Assembly (NCBI GenBank): GCA_052390515.1 | Contig: JBQTGV010000037.1 | Span: 1 to 27,976 of the forward strand | Reading direction: 5' to 3' | DNA: 27,976 nt | Origin: Candidatus Eiseniibacteriota bacterium | GTDB taxonomy: Bacteria; ARS69 | Shown here: positions 7,438-26,034 of the stretch, piece after piece | How positions within the stretch are numbered: position 1 is the stretch's first letter | How the letters are laid out: each line of letters starts with the position of its first letter | Program-made: the position numbers and the translations under genes | Notes under the pieces: model-generated | What the model was told of the DNA's origin: nothing | Seen by the model: the letters and a program-made list of their open reading frames with translations, nothing else | The model's database searches: none

Positions 7438-7508
7438 TTGGGGCGGGAGGAGTCGAACCTCCATTCTCGGCTCCAAAGGCCGATGTCCTGCCATTAGACG
7501 ACACCCCA
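7438..7508 (-). tRNA. tRNA-Gln (anticodon UUG), CCA not encoded
   Basis: TGGGGTG/CGCCCCA acceptor stem; D arm around AATGGC; TCGGC-CT TTG GA-GCCGA anticodon arm; GGAGG-TTCGACT-CCTCC T arm; classic ispE-tRNAGln-prs position. Confidence 0.96.
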
Positions 7509-8508: not shown

Positions 8509-9393
8509 CTATCCGAGATAGAGGATCGCGACGATCGCCGCCATCCAGGCCACGACGCTCAGGGCGAGGGCCGAGTCGCGGAAGAGGATTTCGGAAGGAT
8601 TCCCGCCGAGCCCTCTCTCCCGGATCAGGAACTGGTACCGGAAGAACCCATACACGACGAAGGGGACGGTGTAAACGAGTTTGTCCGTACCGATCCTCGC
8701 CACGGTCTGCGGCCAGATCGTGTAGATGGAGTACGTGAGGATCGCCGCCGTGGAGACCATGGGGATGATGCTGTCCAGCAGCTCGGTGCTGTAGTCGCCG
8801 AGGGTGGCGCGGTGGCGGGCCGCCGCCTCGTCCAGCAGGCGAAGCTCCGAGCGCCGCTTGCCGAAGCCCATCACCAGCGCCAGGAAGAACGTGCACAGCA
8901 GCAGCCAGTGCGAGAGCGTGACGCTGGAATCCACGTCGCGCAGGACCTCCACTCCGCCGATGGCCCGCATCATGAAGCCGACGGAGATGCCCATGACGTC
9001 GATGATGACGTGGTGCTTGAGCCAGAGCGTGTACAGGAGGTTCAAGGCCACGTACGACGCGCAGGCGATGCCGAAGCGGGTGCCCAGCTGGAAGGCGATC
9101 GCGACGCCTCCGCCCCACAGCGCCAGGAACAGGAGCGTCGCCGCGCGCTTCCCCACCGTGCCCGACGCGATCGGGCGCATCCGCTTCTCCGGATGCAGTC
9201 GGTCGCGCTCCGCGTCCACCAGGTCGTTGAACACATAGGTACCGCTGGACACGATGCAGAACGTGGCGAACGCGGCCAGCGCGCGCAGCACGAGCTCCGG
9301 CTCACCCAGCCTCTCGGCGAAGACCACGCCGGCCAGCACGACGACGTTCTTGATCCACTGGTAAGGGCGGATCAGCGTGACCAGCGCGGTCAT
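8509..9393 (-). CDS. UbiA-family decaprenyl-phosphate phosphoribosyltransferase-like membrane enzyme
   Basis: IRPYQWIKN, YVFNDLVDAERDRLHPEKRMRPIASG, LKHHVIIDV, FGKRRSEL, RATLGDYS: motifs of the DPPR-synthase subgroup of UbiA. Confidence 0.9.
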   Translation of the reverse strand: MTALVTLIRPYQWIKNVVVLAGVVFAERLGEPELVLRALAAFATFCIVSSGTYVFNDLVDAERDRLHPEKRMRPIASGTVGKRAATLLFLALWGGGVAIAFQLGTRFGIACASYVALNLLYTLWLKHHVIIDVMGISVGFMMRAIGGVEVLRDVDSSVTLSHWLLLCTFFLALVMGFGKRRSELRLLDEAAARHRATLGDYSTELLDSIIPMVSTAAILTYSIYTIWPQTVARIGTDKLVYTVPFVVYGFFRYQFLIRERGLGGNPSEILFRDSALALSVVAWMAAIVAILYLG

Positions 9394-10055
9394 CGCTCCT
9401 CCACCGCCGCTTCGGCCCGGTCCAGGACTTCTCGCATCTTGGAGACGATCAGGTCGATGGCCACGTCGTTGAATCCGCCCCGCGGGATGATGAAATCGGC
9501 ATGGCGCTTGGAGGGCTCGACGAACTGCTGGTGCATCGGCCGCACCGTGTCCTGGTACTGCTGCAGGACGGAGTGCACGGAGCGGCCACGCTCGTGGATG
9601 TCGCGCAGGAGGCGGCGCATCAGCCGCTCGTCGGCCTCAGCGTCCACGAAGAGCTTGATGTCCATCAAGGCACGCAACTCCTCCACGGTGAGCACCTGGA
9701 TTCCCTCGACCAGGATGAGGCTGGCCGGCCCCGTCGGCCGTTCCGCGTCCCTGCGAGTGTGGGTCTCGTAGTCGTAGACCGGCACGGGCACGGCGCGTCC
9801 GGCACGCAGCTCGACCAGGTGCCGGGCGAGCAGGTCGTTCTCGAACGCGTCCGGATGATCGTAGTTGAGCCTCGCCCGCTCCTCGAGGGAGAGGTCGGGG
9901 CGGTTCCGGTAGTACGAATCGTGGTGCACGATGACGACGCTCTTCCCGGCGAAGCGGTCCGCCAGGCGGAGCGCGACCGTCGTCTTCCCGGAGCCGCTCC
10001 CTCCGGCGATGCCGATCACCACGGGCCTCATGATCGGCGCGATCTCAGCGTTCAT
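9390..10055 (-). CDS. udk: Uridine kinase
   Basis: GIAGGSGSGKTT, DSYY, NYDHPDAF, RRLLRDIHERGRS, VRPMHQQFVEPSKRHAD. Confidence 0.97.
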   Translation of the reverse strand: MNAEIAPIMRPVVIGIAGGSGSGKTTVALRLADRFAGKSVVIVHHDSYYRNRPDLSLEERARLNYDHPDAFENDLLARHLVELRAGRAVPVPVYDYETHTRRDAERPTGPASLILVEGIQVLTVEELRALMDIKLFVDAEADERLMRRLLRDIHERGRSVHSVLQQYQDTVRPMHQQFVEPSKRHADFIIPRGGFNDVAIDLIVSKMREVLDRAEAAVEER

Positions 10056-10061
10056 GTCTCG

Positions 10062-10188
10062 AACGCGAACAGCAGTTCCACCCCGCTCGATCTCGCTCGG
10101 CGTCCTGCCTCGCTCGCATCGTGGCCTGAGGCCACCGCTCTCCGTGGCTCCGTCTCGGCGGCGACGACGCGACGCAGAACCTCGCGTT
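10062..10188 (-). repeat. Structured intergenic repeat, copy 1 (upstream of udk)
   Basis: Shares blocks cgctc, ctcgctcggcgtcc(a)tgcctcgctcg, gtggct and cggcggcgacgacgc with 25118-25205; flanked by aacgcga/tcgcgtt inverted repeat. Confidence 0.85.
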
Positions 10189-10205
10189 GCTTCCGGCTCA
10201 TGATT

Positions 10206-10568
10206 CTACGTTCGCGAGATGAGCCAGACGCCGAACGCGACGACCAGCGTGCCCAGGAACCTGGCGGGCGTGACCGACTCGTGCAGGATGAAGCGAGAGA
10301 GCAGCACGACCAGGATGTAGCCCATGGCCAGCATGGGATACGCGTACGAGAGGTCCGCCCGGGTGAGCACGATCAGCCACAGCGCAGCGGAGATCCCGTA
10401 GCAGGCGAACCCCAAGATGACGACGGGATTCGTCGCCGCGCGCAGCAGGCGCGGCATCACCTCGGCCACCTCGTCCACGACGTCGCCGGACGACATTCCG
10501 TGCTTGAGCAGGAACTGCCCGATCACGCCGAGGCAGACGCAAGTGAGGATCAGGAGGAAGTTCTTCAC
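10206..10568 (-). CDS. SMR/EamA-family small membrane protein (ArnE/ArnF-like lipid-linked sugar flippase)
   Basis: 120 aa, 4 TM helices, GQFLLKHG, WLIVLTRADLSYAYP, ILHESVT..RFLG..VVAFGVWLI. Confidence 0.85.
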   Translation of the reverse strand: MKNFLLILTCVCLGVIGQFLLKHGMSSGDVVDEVAEVMPRLLRAATNPVVILGFACYGISAALWLIVLTRADLSYAYPMLAMGYILVVLLSRFILHESVTPARFLGTLVVAFGVWLISRT

Positions 10569-10590
10569 CGCGAGCCCCGCATCCGCGCCA

Positions 10591-12105
10591 TCAGTACGCC
10601 TCCTCCTGGGACAGGAACCGGAACAGCGTGAGCACCAGGATCTTCACGTCGAGAGCCAGCGACCAGTTCTCGACGTACCAGATGTCGTAGCGGGTTCGCT
10701 CCTCGATGGAGGTGTCTCCGCGGAGACCGTTCACCTGGGCCCAGCCGGTCAGTCCGGACTTCACCCCGTGCCGCTCGAGATAGCGTGGGATGCTCCGGCG
10801 AAACTCCTCCACGAAGTGCCCGCGCTCCGGCCGGGGGCCGACCAGCGACATCTGACCCCTCAGGACGTTCCACAGCTGCGGCAGTTCGTCCAGGCTCGAG
10901 CGGCGCAGCACCCGGCCCAGCCGGGTCGGGCGGTCGTCCTCGCGATTCGCCCGGACGGGCCCGGTCGTCTTCTCCGCGTCGGGCGGCATCGACCGGAACT
11001 TGAGGATGTGGAACTCCCGGCCGTCCCGGCCCACCCGGCGTTGGCGGAAGAACACCGGCCCCGGCGAGTCCAGCTTCACGGCCAAGGCGAGCAGGGCGAG
11101 GAGCGGCAGGAACACGGTGAGGGCACACGCCGAGACGACGAGGTCGAGCGTGCGTTTCTTCACCCGGTCGATGCGGTCCAGCGGGTGCAGCCGCGAGCCC
11201 ACCAGCGGGATTCCGTCGAGCTCCTCGACGCGGACCCGTCCGAGCATCACCTCGAAAAGGTCCGGAACGAACTCGCAGCGCAGCCCGGCGTCGTGGCAGG
11301 CCTCCACCACGTCGAGCCGCTCGTCGTGGGTGAGCTCGGGATCGGTGACGATGATCCGCTCGATGCCGTGCTCGCGGGCGAAGGTGCAGACGCGCTCGGC
11401 GCTGCCGGCGGCCTGTGCGCCGGCGCCATCGCCGGGTCTCCAGTCCTCGCCGTCCAGCCGGGCGACGACTTCGAGCCCGCTCCCCGGTCTTGTGCGGATG
11501 TTCTCGGCGAGGCGGTCGGCCAAGCGGCCGCCGCCCACGATGCCGACGCGCTGCACGCCGAAGCCCCGGCTGCGGAGTCCGCGGTGCACGCTCAGGGCTG
11601 CTCCACGCAGCGCGACGACGGCCATCCAGGAGACCGCGAGATAGCCGACCAGAAACGTCCGCGAGTAGGAGAAGTCGCGGTAGAAGAAGGCGATGGACGC
11701 GAGCAGGACGCCGAGCAGCACCAGCGCACGGGCCGCGCGCATGGCGTCGCGGAGCAGACCGGCGGTACGGTGCGGGCGGTAGAGCCCGGCGGCGTTCGCC
11801 ACGAAGAGCCCGACCGGAACCACCACGGCGAGCGATCCCGCGTAGAACCCGGGCGCCGGAACGCCGAGCGGCACCGGGAAGGCACCGGACAGGAAGCGGA
11901 TCCAGTACGTGGCGAGCATCGCCGCGGAGAGCGCGAGTGCGTCCGCCAGGACGAGCGTGGCGGTGAAGACCACCGGCGCGAGCTCCCTCGTGGCCGGCGG
12001 CGTCGGGCGGCTGGGCGGCGTCGACGGGACGCGCAGCCGGCCTTTCGCCGGCGCGGGAGCCGGCGGGGTGCGGAGAGGCCGTGGCGCCGTCCGGGTGGGG
12101 CTCAC
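10591..12105 (-). CDS. Undecaprenyl-phosphate glucose phosphotransferase (WcaJ-like priming glycosyltransferase)
   Basis: KRTLDL, SPGPVFFRQRRVG, KFRSM, LRRSSLDELPQLWNVLRGQMSLVGPRPE, GLTGWAQVNGLRGDT, YDIWYVENWS; four N-terminal TMs; GTG 12105 overlaps the gmhA stop, SD GGAGGA. Confidence 0.93.
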   Translation of the reverse strand: MSPTRTAPRPLRTPPAPAPAKGRLRVPSTPPSRPTPPATRELAPVVFTATLVLADALALSAAMLATYWIRFLSGAFPVPLGVPAPGFYAGSLAVVVPVGLFVANAAGLYRPHRTAGLLRDAMRAARALVLLGVLLASIAFFYRDFSYSRTFLVGYLAVSWMAVVALRGAALSVHRGLRSRGFGVQRVGIVGGGRLADRLAENIRTRPGSGLEVVARLDGEDWRPGDGAGAQAAGSAERVCTFAREHGIERIIVTDPELTHDERLDVVEACHDAGLRCEFVPDLFEVMLGRVRVEELDGIPLVGSRLHPLDRIDRVKKRTLDLVVSACALTVFLPLLALLALAVKLDSPGPVFFRQRRVGRDGREFHILKFRSMPPDAEKTTGPVRANREDDRPTRLGRVLRRSSLDELPQLWNVLRGQMSLVGPRPERGHFVEEFRRSIPRYLERHGVKSGLTGWAQVNGLRGDTSIEERTRYDIWYVENWSLALDVKILVLTLFRFLSQEEAY

Positions 12106-23822: not shown

Positions 23823-23851
23823 GAGCGTGCTGAAAGACAGCACCCTCCTAG
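23819..23851. repeat. CTAG-bounded hairpin (collapsed MITE-like remnant or terminator)
   Basis: CTAGGAGCGTGCTG-AAAGA-CAGCACCCTCCTAG, 13/14 inverted match, overlapping the TAG stop of the AsmA-like gene. Confidence 0.65.
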
Positions 23852-23864
23852 GACTTTGGAAGAT

Positions 23865-23943
23865 GGAGGCCGCTGAAAACCCTTCTTCCTTCCCCTCTCG
23901 CCCTGCCGGGCGGGAGCGGAACGGGTTTTCAGCAGCCTCCTAG
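23865..23943. mobile_element. MITE-like element with 18-bp terminal inverted repeats
   Basis: GGAGGCCGCTGAAAACCC ... GGGTTTTCAGCAGCCTCC (17/18 match); inner hairpin CTCTCGCCC-TGCC-GGGCGGGAG; right end CTAG; no coding capacity. Confidence 0.6.
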
Positions 23944-23997
23944 AGCTCTGTCTCGAAAGAAGTGATCAGATGGCCGAGCGCCGTAGCCGCCCGCCGC

Positions 23998-25065
23998 CTA
24001 CTCCGGGACCTGGATCTCGCAGTTGTCCCCGATCATGAAGCGGTAGGCGCGCGGCCGGGCCGGGCCTCCGGTGATGCGCGCGTCCTTGCCCACGAGGCTG
24101 CCTTCCATGCGGTGCCCCAGGCGTTCGATCGTCGAGTTCTCCAGCACGATGGAGAACTCGATCTCGGCGTGCTCGATGCGGCAGCCGCGCGAGATCGAGG
24201 TGAACGGCCCGACGTACGCGTCCCGGACCACCGTACCCGCGCCGATGATCAGCGGTCCGCGCAGCTCGGAGCGTTCGACGACCGCGCCCTCCTCGACGAT
24301 GACGTCGCCGTGAATGACCGACGCCGGATCCACCCGGCCGCGCACGTCCAGCGCGATCCCGGACAGCGCGACGCGGTTCGCCTCCAGCATGTCGTCGAGC
24401 TTCCCGGTGTCCTTCCACCAGCCCTTGATCACGTGGCTGCGCACGTCCAGACCCTGGTCGATCAGCCACTGGATCGCGTCGGTGATCTCCAGCTCTCCGC
24501 GCTTCGACGGGCGAATGGTGTTCACCGCTCGGAAGACGTTCGCGTCGAAGAGGTAGACGCCGACGAGCGCGAAGTCCGACTTCGGTTTCGCCGGCTTCTC
24601 CTCCAGGCGCACGACCTTGCCGTCCCGGATCTCCGCCACGCCGAACGCGGACGGGTTCGCCACCTTGGCCAGCAGGATCTGCGCGTTCGGCCGCTCGTCG
24701 CGGAACTCCTGCACGAACTGGCGGACGCCGTCGGCGATCAGGTTGTCGCCCAGGTACATCACGAAAGGATCCTTGCCGAGGAATCCCTCGGAGATCTTGA
24801 CCGCGTGCGCGAGGCCGTCGGGCGAAGCCTGGCGGATGTACGTGACGCGAACGCCCAGCGCCGACCCGTCGCCCACGGCGGCCCGGATCTCCGGCTCGGT
24901 GTCGCCGACGACGATCCCGATCTCCTCGATGCCGGCGTCTCGGATGGCCTCGATCCCGAAGAAGAGGATGGGCTTGTTCGCCACCGGCACGAGCTGCTTC
25001 GCCTGCGTGTAGGTGATGGGGCGAAGCCGACTGCCCTTCCCGCCGGCGAGGATCAGGCCTTTCAA
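23998..25065 (-). CDS. rfbA: Glucose-1-phosphate thymidylyltransferase, long form
   Basis: GLILAGGKGSRLRPIT, KQLVPVANKP, YLGDN, EEKP, SKRGELEITDA, WWKDTG, plus C-terminal beta-helix-like repeats; TTG start with SD GGGGAGG. Confidence 0.95.
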   Translation of the reverse strand: MKGLILAGGKGSRLRPITYTQAKQLVPVANKPILFFGIEAIRDAGIEEIGIVVGDTEPEIRAAVGDGSALGVRVTYIRQASPDGLAHAVKISEGFLGKDPFVMYLGDNLIADGVRQFVQEFRDERPNAQILLAKVANPSAFGVAEIRDGKVVRLEEKPAKPKSDFALVGVYLFDANVFRAVNTIRPSKRGELEITDAIQWLIDQGLDVRSHVIKGWWKDTGKLDDMLEANRVALSGIALDVRGRVDPASVIHGDVIVEEGAVVERSELRGPLIIGAGTVVRDAYVGPFTSISRGCRIEHAEIEFSIVLENSTIERLGHRMEGSLVGKDARITGGPARPRAYRFMIGDNCEIQVPE

Positions 25066-25087
25066 CGAGTCCGACCTCCCCTGCGCC

Positions 25088-25235
25088 GCGCTTCGGATCG
25101 AATGCCGGAGAAGGCCTCGCTCAACCTCGCTCGGCGTCCATGCCTCGCTCGGACCGGCGAAGCCTTCTTTCGCCGTCTGTGGCTACAGCGCGGCGGCGAC
25201 GACGCTCGGCCTTCTCCGACCTTCTCCCGAAGCGC
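25088..25235 (-). repeat. Structured intergenic repeat, copy 2 (upstream of rfbA)
   Basis: Same conserved blocks as 10084-10170, enclosed by cggagaaggcc/ggccttctccg (11 bp) and gcgcttcgg/ccgaagcgc (9 bp) inverted repeats. Confidence 0.85.
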
Positions 25236-25242
25236 TCGCCCC

Positions 25243-26034
25243 TCACCCATCGAACAACCTCCTCCACAGCGTACGAGGCCCGCCACGTCGCGGGAGGGTC
25301 ACCGGCTCGACGCGGATGTCCTCGCCGCGCGCGATGCTCCAGGGCCTTCCGCTGGTGAGCCGCTCGGCCTCCTCCTCGCCGACGATCTCCGCGGCGGCGC
25401 GCCTCCCCCGGTCCAGACAGAACGGCCGCCGGCGCTCCACGCCGTGCGCGTCCGAAGCGAGAACGTGCGCCGCGCCGGCTTCCAGCAGCTCCACCGCGCA
25501 GGACTGCGCGGCGTCGCCGAGCGTGCCGAGGACGCTGCCGGCGTTCACCTGCAGCAGGGCGCCGGCGGCGATCCAGTCGGCGAGCGGCGCCGGATCCACC
25601 TGCACGTCCCGGTTCCGCTCCGGATGAGCGATCACCGCCACCCTCCCTCTCCGCGAGAGCGCCTCGACGGCCTCGAGGACGTTTCCGGGCGCCTCGCGCA
25701 TCGAGAAATCGAACAGAACATAGCGGCCGGGGCTCCCCAGCGGAACCGCGTTCTCCGCGAACCGCTCCGCGCCCATCTCCTCGGCGAGGAAGTTCTCCGC
25801 GCCGGGAAAGACCTCGAGCCCGATCTTCTCCTGCCGGAGCGCGGCCACGAGCTTGGGATGCTCGGTGGCCAGGAGCGCCGTGGACGTGTCGAACAGGCCT
25901 TCGCCGAGGTGCGACGTGGCGCAGACGGCCCGGCAGCCGGTCGCCAGGGCCGCCCGCGCCATGGCGAAGGCATCGGCGAGATCCACGGCACCGTCGTCCA
26001 CTCCGGGGAGGATGTGACAGTGGAGGTCGAGCAT
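25243..26034 (-). CDS. PHP-family tyrosine-protein phosphatase (CpsB/CapC/YwqE-like)
   Basis: DLHCHILPGVDDGA, ATSH, GAEN, IAHPERN, LQVNAGS, LASDAH. Confidence 0.92.
   Translation of the reverse strand: MLDLHCHILPGVDDGAVDLADAFAMARAALATGCRAVCATSHLGEGLFDTSTALLATEHPKLVAALRQEKIGLEVFPGAENFLAEEMGAERFAENAVPLGSPGRYVLFDFSMREAPGNVLEAVEALSRRGRVAVIAHPERNRDVQVDPAPLADWIAAGALLQVNAGSVLGTLGDAAQSCAVELLEAGAAHVLASDAHGVERRRPFCLDRGRRAAAEIVGEEEAERLTSGRPWSIARGEDIRVEPVTLPRRGGPRTLWRRLFDG

Follow-up and report, generated by a model that had tools for sequence, protein, structure and literature searches.

Two intergenic stretches (positions 10084–10170 and 25118–25205) of the 27,976-nucleotide (nt) window of Candidatus Eiseniibacteriota DNA analysed here are very probably copies of a dispersed, non-coding long-hairpin repeat, which forms a G+C-rich and divergent branch of the TwoAYGGAY structured-RNA family (Rfam RF01731). 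The element multiplies within genomes and inserts at new sites. The pairing of its closing stem is maintained while the sequence of that stem drifts, and copies are excluded from intergenic regions between divergent genes. Own-genome counts refer to the assembly containing the window (G000; 4.27 Mb in 223 contigs, 70% G+C, 95% complete), the genes of which were called with a crude script of our own (3438 genes, 91.6% of the genome coding).

The two stretches had been singled out from the letters of the DNA, without database searches (the sequence-only reading), as homologous and lying in one orientation. This was borne out: an alignment of the two intergenic stretches showed a mean column identity of 74%, and a whole-genome search with copy 2 recovered copy 1 at an E value of 2.4e-8. 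Sequence and alignment likewise show the common blocks with their identical 15-mer, as well as inverted repeats, inner and outer, that differ between the copies, as described there. Both copies are on the minus strand, as are all four flanking genes. The element had been taken to exist in two copies, and this number proved far too low. The 15-mer alone has 15 occurrences genome-wide, 8 in forward and 7 in reverse orientation, as compared to 0 and 1 for the reversed control. BLAST with copy 1 returned 40 scored matches and three rounds of nhmmer returned 66 hits, 31 of them full length. A covariance model built from 26 copies (R1; matches at E≤0.001 unless stated) found 57, and a third, truncated copy is present in the window itself. 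Some contig-end fragments among the hits may be halves of one copy, so that distinct copies are somewhat fewer, while the R1 counts are lower bounds because this model missed a rod of the same class in a related genome (see below). Nineteen of the 66 nhmmer hits are at contig ends, as expected since repeats break assemblies. Copies of one young subfamily are 87–99% identical to the query over their matched lengths, which points to a probably recent multiplication.

According to single-copy folds, the RNAalifold consensus and pair counts over 26 copies, the core of the element consists of two hairpins on a common basal stem. Instead of the 87 and 88 nt initially assigned to it, most full copies form a rod of 146–167 nt that extends from the upstream stop codon onwards, with an 87-nt core closed by arms of ~35 nt. 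The loop of hairpin 1 has six bases and reads AYGGAY in 22 of the 26 copies; the loop of hairpin 2 is AYGGAY in 12 and a form shorter by one base, A-GGAC, in 10. The GGA itself is kept in 24/26 copies in loop 1 and in 22/26 in loop 2. Hairpin 2 carries two tandem G.A internal loops (GA/GA), present in 25/26 and 26/26 copies, and two of its base pairs switch cleanly between G-C and C-G (16 to 8 and 13 to 13). In the main subfamily the palindrome extends through CTAG at each end and a T/C-rich run follows the inner stem; the run is not kept in the other subfamilies. Searching with the arm sequence exposed truncated and internally deleted copies. Two deletion derivatives in G000 are found at C80:5640–5758 and C113:8950–9031, one retaining only the arms and hairpin 2, the other being cut after the hairpin-2 loop.

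The arms diverge much more than the core, with mean column identities of 44% (inner arms) and 86%, respectively. Despite this divergence they remain complementary, and in the closing stem 13 of 16 pairs show changes on both sides among the 26 copies. Counting the whole structure, 17 pairs do so, and 92.1% of the cells are paired, as compared to 76.1% in shuffled alignments and 28–43% when the partners are slid by 1–3 columns. Pairing that is kept while the stem sequence is swapped, first proposed from the two window copies, therefore holds over 26 copies. Mismatches in the stems are G:T or T:G 43 times and A:C or C:A 21 times (binomial p = 0.008), and therefore the AYGGAY strand folds better than its complement. 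This is expected if that strand acts as RNA or single-stranded DNA, although a transcription-linked mutation bias could yield the same skew of 43 to 21, and the copies are not independent.

The element had been considered as possibly undescribed. It shares the fold of the TwoAYGGAY motif, even though Rfam returns no hit for the window copies. A recent preprint describes the motif as two successive hairpins arising from a shared basal stem and ending in AYGGAY terminal loops (bioRxiv 10.64898/2026.09.22.753630), and two tandem-GAs are given as characteristic of it (Gardner and Eldai, PMC4333381). The repeat has the basal stem closing two successive hairpins with AYGGAY loops, the two tandem G.A pairs in one hairpin, and a dispersed multi-copy occurrence, with divergently oriented doublets in related genomes. 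It differs in that hairpin 1 is longer and contains internal loops, in the shortened loop 2 of 10 copies, and in that own-genome copies are singletons starting at stop codons. Arrays of 5–6-mers or large flanking repeats like those in Pseudomonas were not noticed around the copies, for which no formal test was made.

Homology to the family can be traced in two steps. R1 reaches into the sister genus G001 (another genus of the same family), where it has 13 matches and scores the copies relevant here at 38.9–51.1 bits; in G002 it has 3. The Rfam model in turn aligns to G001 copies over its full length with 44.1 and 41.7 bits, the gathering threshold being 43 bits. In whole-genome searches of 12 genomes of the phylum, RF01731 gave seven matches in G001 (32.8 to 44.1 bits, one above threshold) and a single one in G000, at 32.5 bits, which falls exactly on a copy of the repeat (C147:13656–13813) and in the same orientation. 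None appeared in 14 control genomes. Six other own-genome copies submitted to Rfam at E≤10 produced no TwoAYGGAY match, only a chance-level Moco-II (E 9.1). We read the own-genome copies as a divergent TwoAYGGAY branch that Rfam's own criterion does not accept. The motif was originally listed as probably RNA and not cis-regulatory, with occurrences in human gut, gamma-Proteobacteria and Clostridiales (Weinberg et al., 2010; PMC2864571). The present host phylum lies outside the taxa named for the motif in the available sections of these sources (gamma-Proteobacteria/Pseudomonadota, Clostridiales/Bacillota, human gut).

The copies occupy a distinctive position relative to genes. Among the 66 nhmmer hits, 25 are between convergent genes, 15 between tandem genes in sense and 6 in antisense orientation, one is inside a called gene and none is between divergent genes, the remainder being those at contig edges. 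As a background, divergent regions account for 313 of all 891 intergenic regions that span ≥100 nt. When only the 31 strong non-edge hits are considered, 19 are convergent and 0 divergent, with a chance of ~1.5e-6 for 0/31 from this background; in tandem settings these strong hits are sense rather than antisense by 10 to 2. The core begins 33–35 nt past the adjoining stop codon in most copies, so that the arm begins at the stop, and at convergent sites the rod often abuts a stop codon at either end. The abutting stop is TAG at 38 of 66 gene ends, as compared to 775 of 3284 TAG/TGA/TAA stops genome-wide. CTAG was considered as a candidate insertion target; the genome contains 876 CTAG sites, 288 at stop codons and 344 intergenic.

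A similar distribution was found in other public metagenome-assembled genomes (MAGs). The core pattern identified 61 loci, mostly titled Woeseiaceae or Gammaproteobacteria, in which R1 gave 62 matches that were merged into 51 units. Using a self-trained gene caller, likewise a crude script of our own, 24 of these units are convergent, 12 tandem and 13 at a contig edge. One lies inside a gene (35.4 bits) and one between divergent genes (39.5 bits), both low-scoring and from records of other taxa. Convergent units thus make up 24 of the 38 that are not at an edge.

That the two window copies are insertions follows from a comparison with related genomes. The EamA-like gene and the uridine-kinase-family gene (udk) that flank copy 1 are neighbours in 10/10 related genomes compared, separated by ~5–25 nt from stop to start and with no R1 element at the junction. 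The EamA-like protein ends at the same residues (...LISRT) in the relatives and here, and therefore the element was inserted just behind an existing stop codon. Similarly, the junction between the CpsB/CapC-like gene and the sugar-nucleotidyltransferase gene, which harbors copy 2, is element-free in 9/9 syntenic relatives, with gaps of 22–85 nt (tblastn) as compared to 177 nt here. Hence, both window copies are lineage-specific insertions into operon junctions. Behind the insertion, the nucleotidyltransferase gene still has its ribosome-binding stretch and its TTG start codon. Orthologue junctions suggest that the true start of udk is probably an ATG 24 nt inside the called start (window 10029–10055); if so, the stretch between rod and start would be ancestral spacer.

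The same comparison bears on a promoter proposed upstream of copy 1. The TAG of the supposed 'TAGAAT box' (10208–10203) is the stop codon of the EamA-like gene, whose C-terminus (...LISRT*) the relatives keep. No sigma-70-like site was found in 9800–10700, and promoter and terminator scans gave nothing on the gene strand at either copy.

Coordinates of the repeat copies, their loops and the adjoining genes are compiled in Table 1. The two copies differ in their state of preservation. Folded individually, copy 1 is no better than its shuffles (z −1.25, with 22 of 200 folding as well), while copy 2 is (z −3.27; 0 of 200). Only one of the four window loops is an exact AYGGAY. The tandem G.A pairs are present in both copies; in copy 1 the hairpin-2 loop is flanked by CGAGCGAG repeats, which form two such pairs. 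The truncated third copy abuts the stop codon of the nucleotidyltransferase gene and was missed by nhmmer as well as by R1.

Table 1. Positions, in window coordinates, of the repeat copies and of the features around them.
Feature	Position	Strand	Remarks
Copy 1 of the long-hairpin repeat	10056–10205	−	R1 match 10071–10184, 82.2 bits; decayed, outer stem partly paired
Copy 1, hairpin-1 loop	10140–10145	−	ACGGAG; last base of AYGGAY altered, GGA retained
Copy 1, hairpin-2 loop	10102–10106	−	AGGAC; shorter by one base (form of 10/26 copies)
Copy 2 of the repeat	25084–25239	−	R1 match 25105–25219, 109.3 bits; copy-specific closing stem well paired
Copy 2, hairpin-1 loop	25175–25180	−	ACAGAC; GGA lost
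Copy 2, hairpin-2 loop	25136–25141	−	ATGGAC; exact AYGGAY
Third copy, truncated	23940–23991	+	5' arm and first core bases; arm pattern with 3 mismatches
EamA-like small membrane protein gene, upstream of copy 1	10206–10568	−	Pfam
TAG stop of the EamA-like gene	10206–10208	−	Copy 1 begins right behind
Uridine-kinase-family gene (called extent), downstream of copy 1	9390–10055	−	Pfam PRK, 144.7 bits
CpsB/CapC-like gene, upstream of copy 2	25243–26034	−	Pfam
TGA stop of the CpsB/CapC-like gene	25243–25245	−	Copy 2 begins a few bases behind
Sugar-nucleotidyltransferase gene, downstream of copy 2	23998–25065	−	Pfam NTP_transferase, 191.8 bits
tRNA gene	7438–7508	−	Rfam, 63.3 bits; sole window match at gathering threshold

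A different palindromic repeat of ~120 nt occupies 23823–23945 of the window, directly beside the truncated third copy. It has two more near-full copies (C12:2097–2220 and C141:1394–1509) and shorter pieces elsewhere, one of which adjoins an own TwoAYGGAY-like copy on contig C35.

Within the phylum the repeat is patchy. R1 found matches at E≤1e-4 in 3 of 12 genomes, all of one family (53, 12 and 2 matches). An additional rod of the same class was recognized in a genome of another genus, G011 (L198:2617–2800), and is reported by neither R1 nor Rfam. It contains two identical 14-nt hairpins (GGCC-AUGGAU-GGCC), has a fold z of −7.97 and lies right after a TAG stop, at the orthologue of the gene that precedes an own-genome copy on C213. 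Either the two rods arrived independently at one gene end, or they represent one very old insertion that has diverged; the position gives a hint of a site preference of the class. G011 has 11 and G001 has 7 occurrences of the AUGGAU hairpin motif, as compared to 0–2 in reversed controls. G001 moreover carries a composite unit of ~780 nt (L143:1398–2173 and six further loci), repeated at least seven times at 75–97% identity, in which two TwoAYGGAY-like elements in divergent orientation surround a ~330-nt spacer with inverted-repeat ends; no conserved reading frame was seen. The arrangement matches the 'divergent doublets' of the preprint, where, in the portion available, doublets are divergent in 68.4% and a median of 249 bp apart, and extended stems and flanking repeats are described (bioRxiv 10.64898/2026.09.22.753630). 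Doublets are present in G001 and in 11 of the 51 MAG units; none was found in the own genome, with contig ends accounting for 19 of its 66 hits. Being patchy within this phylum and occurring also in Gammaproteobacteria, the distribution of the class fits horizontal spread.

As to how the element spreads, we propose a multiplication in the manner of a miniature mobile element, with some enzyme mobilising it in trans. The rod shape on the AYGGAY strand would be a requirement of the multiplication step or of the transcript, and selection on the rod would act within the element's own multiplication cycle. Insertions that break reading frames or promoters would be purged, so that the survivors would be those just behind stop codons. 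The window copies would ride passively in operon transcripts as extra spacer between two genes, and would not be regulators specific to udk or the nucleotidyltransferase gene. Of the two explanations offered by the sequence-only reading, a family like repetitive extragenic palindromic (REP) elements or miniature inverted-repeat transposable elements (MITEs) is thus the one supported, by more than 50 dispersed copies, many of them convergent, and by contigs that break inside copies. Like MITEs, the repeat is short and non-coding and has inverted ends; it occurs in many copies, some of them deletion derivatives, is polymorphic for insertion between lineages and breaks contigs in assemblies. Presence and absence at orthologous sites, by which MITEs are recognized, is seen at both operon junctions. 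Unlike those of MITEs, the inverted ends of the repeat are specific in sequence to a copy or subfamily, conservation being restricted to their pairing; in addition, no target duplication beyond the palindromic CTAG was demonstrated and no parent insertion sequence found. Other palindromic intergenic repeats are the Correia elements of Neisseria and the enterobacterial repetitive intergenic consensus (ERIC) sequences.

Several results weigh against this interpretation. With respect to the family, own-genome copies stay below the RF01731 gathering score (best 32.5 bits versus 43), and an Rfam search of window positions 9900–10400 returned nothing at E≤5. TwoAYGGAY was found in 0/20 Woeseiaceae-type loci at the gathering threshold, and it was absent at E≤1 from five further loci of this type and two G002 loci. 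With respect to mobility, no linked transposase was found. The only stretch in the genome resembling Y1_Tnp (PF01797, the type of REP-associated tyrosine transposases, RAYTs) is at C130:1193–1387 and reaches 22.4 bits with a cut-off of 23. Nor was there a parent insertion sequence with the same ends, the arm-only sites inspected being truncated copies or contig ends. Of the 47 hits to the arm pattern of the main subfamily, every one inspected was a complete, truncated or deleted copy or lay at a contig end, without a single one flanking a gene. Draft assemblies of this kind often lack insertion sequences because these fail to assemble. A target-site duplication is not apparent, given that the longest flanking direct repeat averages 6.96 nt versus 6.88 nt in mismatched pairs. 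The 8-mer and 5-mer repeats flanking copies 1 and 2 are not above chance; many copies end in CTAG on both sides, which is self-complementary and may belong to the stem. The assembled contigs of four sequencing runs revealed no empty-site form: no joint among those listed skips either element, copy 2 is contained unaltered in a contig of run X1, and copy 1 is not covered by any of the listed pieces. The evidence for mobility accordingly comes from comparison with other genera only. The other MAG loci, with 4 to 6, do not reproduce the sense preference in tandem settings. The shuffle and binomial statistics overstate significance because the copies share descent, and a function for the host could be another reason why the loops of old copies are strongly conserved.

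The latter point leads to the possibility, doubtful in our view but compatible with mobility, that the repeat is a host-useful RNA module in which the two GGA loops putatively bind the global regulator CsrA, so that copies within 3' untranslated regions or operon spacers would either titrate the protein or place the flanking genes under Csr control. CsrA binding of TwoAYGGAY has been proposed from motif matches (PMC4333381), an idea repeated in the preprint (bioRxiv 10.64898/2026.09.22.753630). The genome encodes CsrA (C3:49219–49368; PF02599, 69.5 bits), the GGA is retained in most copies in both loops, and the wobble pairs favour the AYGGAY strand. As in CsrB/RsmZ, the GGA motifs are in hairpin loops; the unit has only two such putative sites and is located within mRNAs or gene gaps, whereas CsrB/RsmZ are separate genes with promoter and terminator. 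Against such a module, copy 2 has lost the GGA of loop 1 and copy 1 is structurally decayed, and 9 of the 12 phylum genomes are without an R1 match, which makes any role dispensable. Unlikely is a role as a terminator or stabilizer of the mRNA 3' end behind the upstream gene, in which the rod would halt RNA polymerase or hold off 3' exonucleases, acting in both directions at convergent sites. Some REP elements act in these ways. The exclusive occurrence at gene 3' ends, the convergent sites, where the element often fills the gap between both stops, the same bias in the other MAG loci and the T/C-rich run behind the inner stem of the main subfamily would suit this role. However, both window copies are between tightly spaced operon genes, the downstream one of which would be cut off, and insertion at such sites is hard to reconcile with a strong terminator. 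No stem followed by a T-run (Rho-independent terminator) was found on the gene strand at either copy, and the T-rich run is absent in other subfamilies.

A REP/REPIN system moved by a RAYT (Y1) transposase is very improbable. The elements are extragenic, palindromic, multi-copy and located at gene 3' ends, inverted doublets exist in relatives, and REP arrays are reported beside TwoAYGGAY in Pseudomonas fluorescens SBW25 (bioRxiv 10.64898/2026.09.22.753630). Like REP elements, bacterial interspersed mosaic elements (BIMEs) and REPINs, the repeat forms extragenic palindromes at gene 3' ends and between convergent genes. Yet it is four to five times longer, with units of 146–167 nt rather than 20–40 nt, and has a branched core; the own genome has no doublets, and no RAYT scored above the cut-off. 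Nor does GC skew indicate a strand bias, the copies showing no preference for the putative leading strand (21 to 14, p = 0.31). Least credible of all is the second proposal of the sequence-only reading, a riboswitch-like cis-regulatory leader sensing pyrimidine nucleotides, with udk and the nucleotidyltransferase gene under its control, and we regard it as almost certainly wrong. It derives from the location of both window copies upstream of nucleotide-handling genes and on the same strand. That reading had itself named many copies, including copies between convergent genes, as the sign of a repeat rather than a regulator, and this is what was found: more than 50 copies adjoin unrelated genes, and at the 25 convergent sites no gene is downstream. 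The orthologous operons in 10 and 9 relatives are without the element, its position is fixed to the upstream stop codon and not to the downstream start, and no promoter-like site was found at either copy. Insertion between the tightly spaced operon genes has itself no bearing on a leader model.

TwoAYGGAY has stood in catalogues since 2010 with no function assigned, and the preprint of 2026 (bioRxiv 10.64898/2026.09.22.753630), as far as its text is available, reports it as abundant and mobile-like in Pseudomonas, with a median of 11–23 and up to 202 copies per genome, leaving its function open between a Csr/Rsm sponge and an expansion of the mobile-element type. The words 'stop codon' and 'terminator' are absent from its main text. 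Our results extend the family to a small phylum with few sampled genomes, where it takes a G+C-rich form undetected by the Rfam model. They add that the closing stem is constrained for pairing only, that own-genome copies are placed at stop codons and in no case in promoter-only gaps, and that two of them are datable as operon-junction insertions. The functional options are thereby narrowed: the element is no gene-specific leader, and a strong terminator is unlikely. In a speculative extension, which we rate as distinctly improbable, TwoAYGGAY-type rods would be a cross-phylum mobile class that homes behind stop codons and thereby installs a pair of putative CsrA-binding GGA loops on host messages, the closing stem being read by the mobilising enzyme. 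Spread of such rods would rewire which genes answer to the Csr system. The copies are clean material for probing both CsrA binding and mobility, and the case speaks for annotating with a broader covariance model.

On one repeat-bearing, Woeseiaceae-titled MAG contig, a c-di-GMP-I-GGC riboswitch was additionally detected (L096:1216–1299, minus strand; 66.2 bits, threshold 59).

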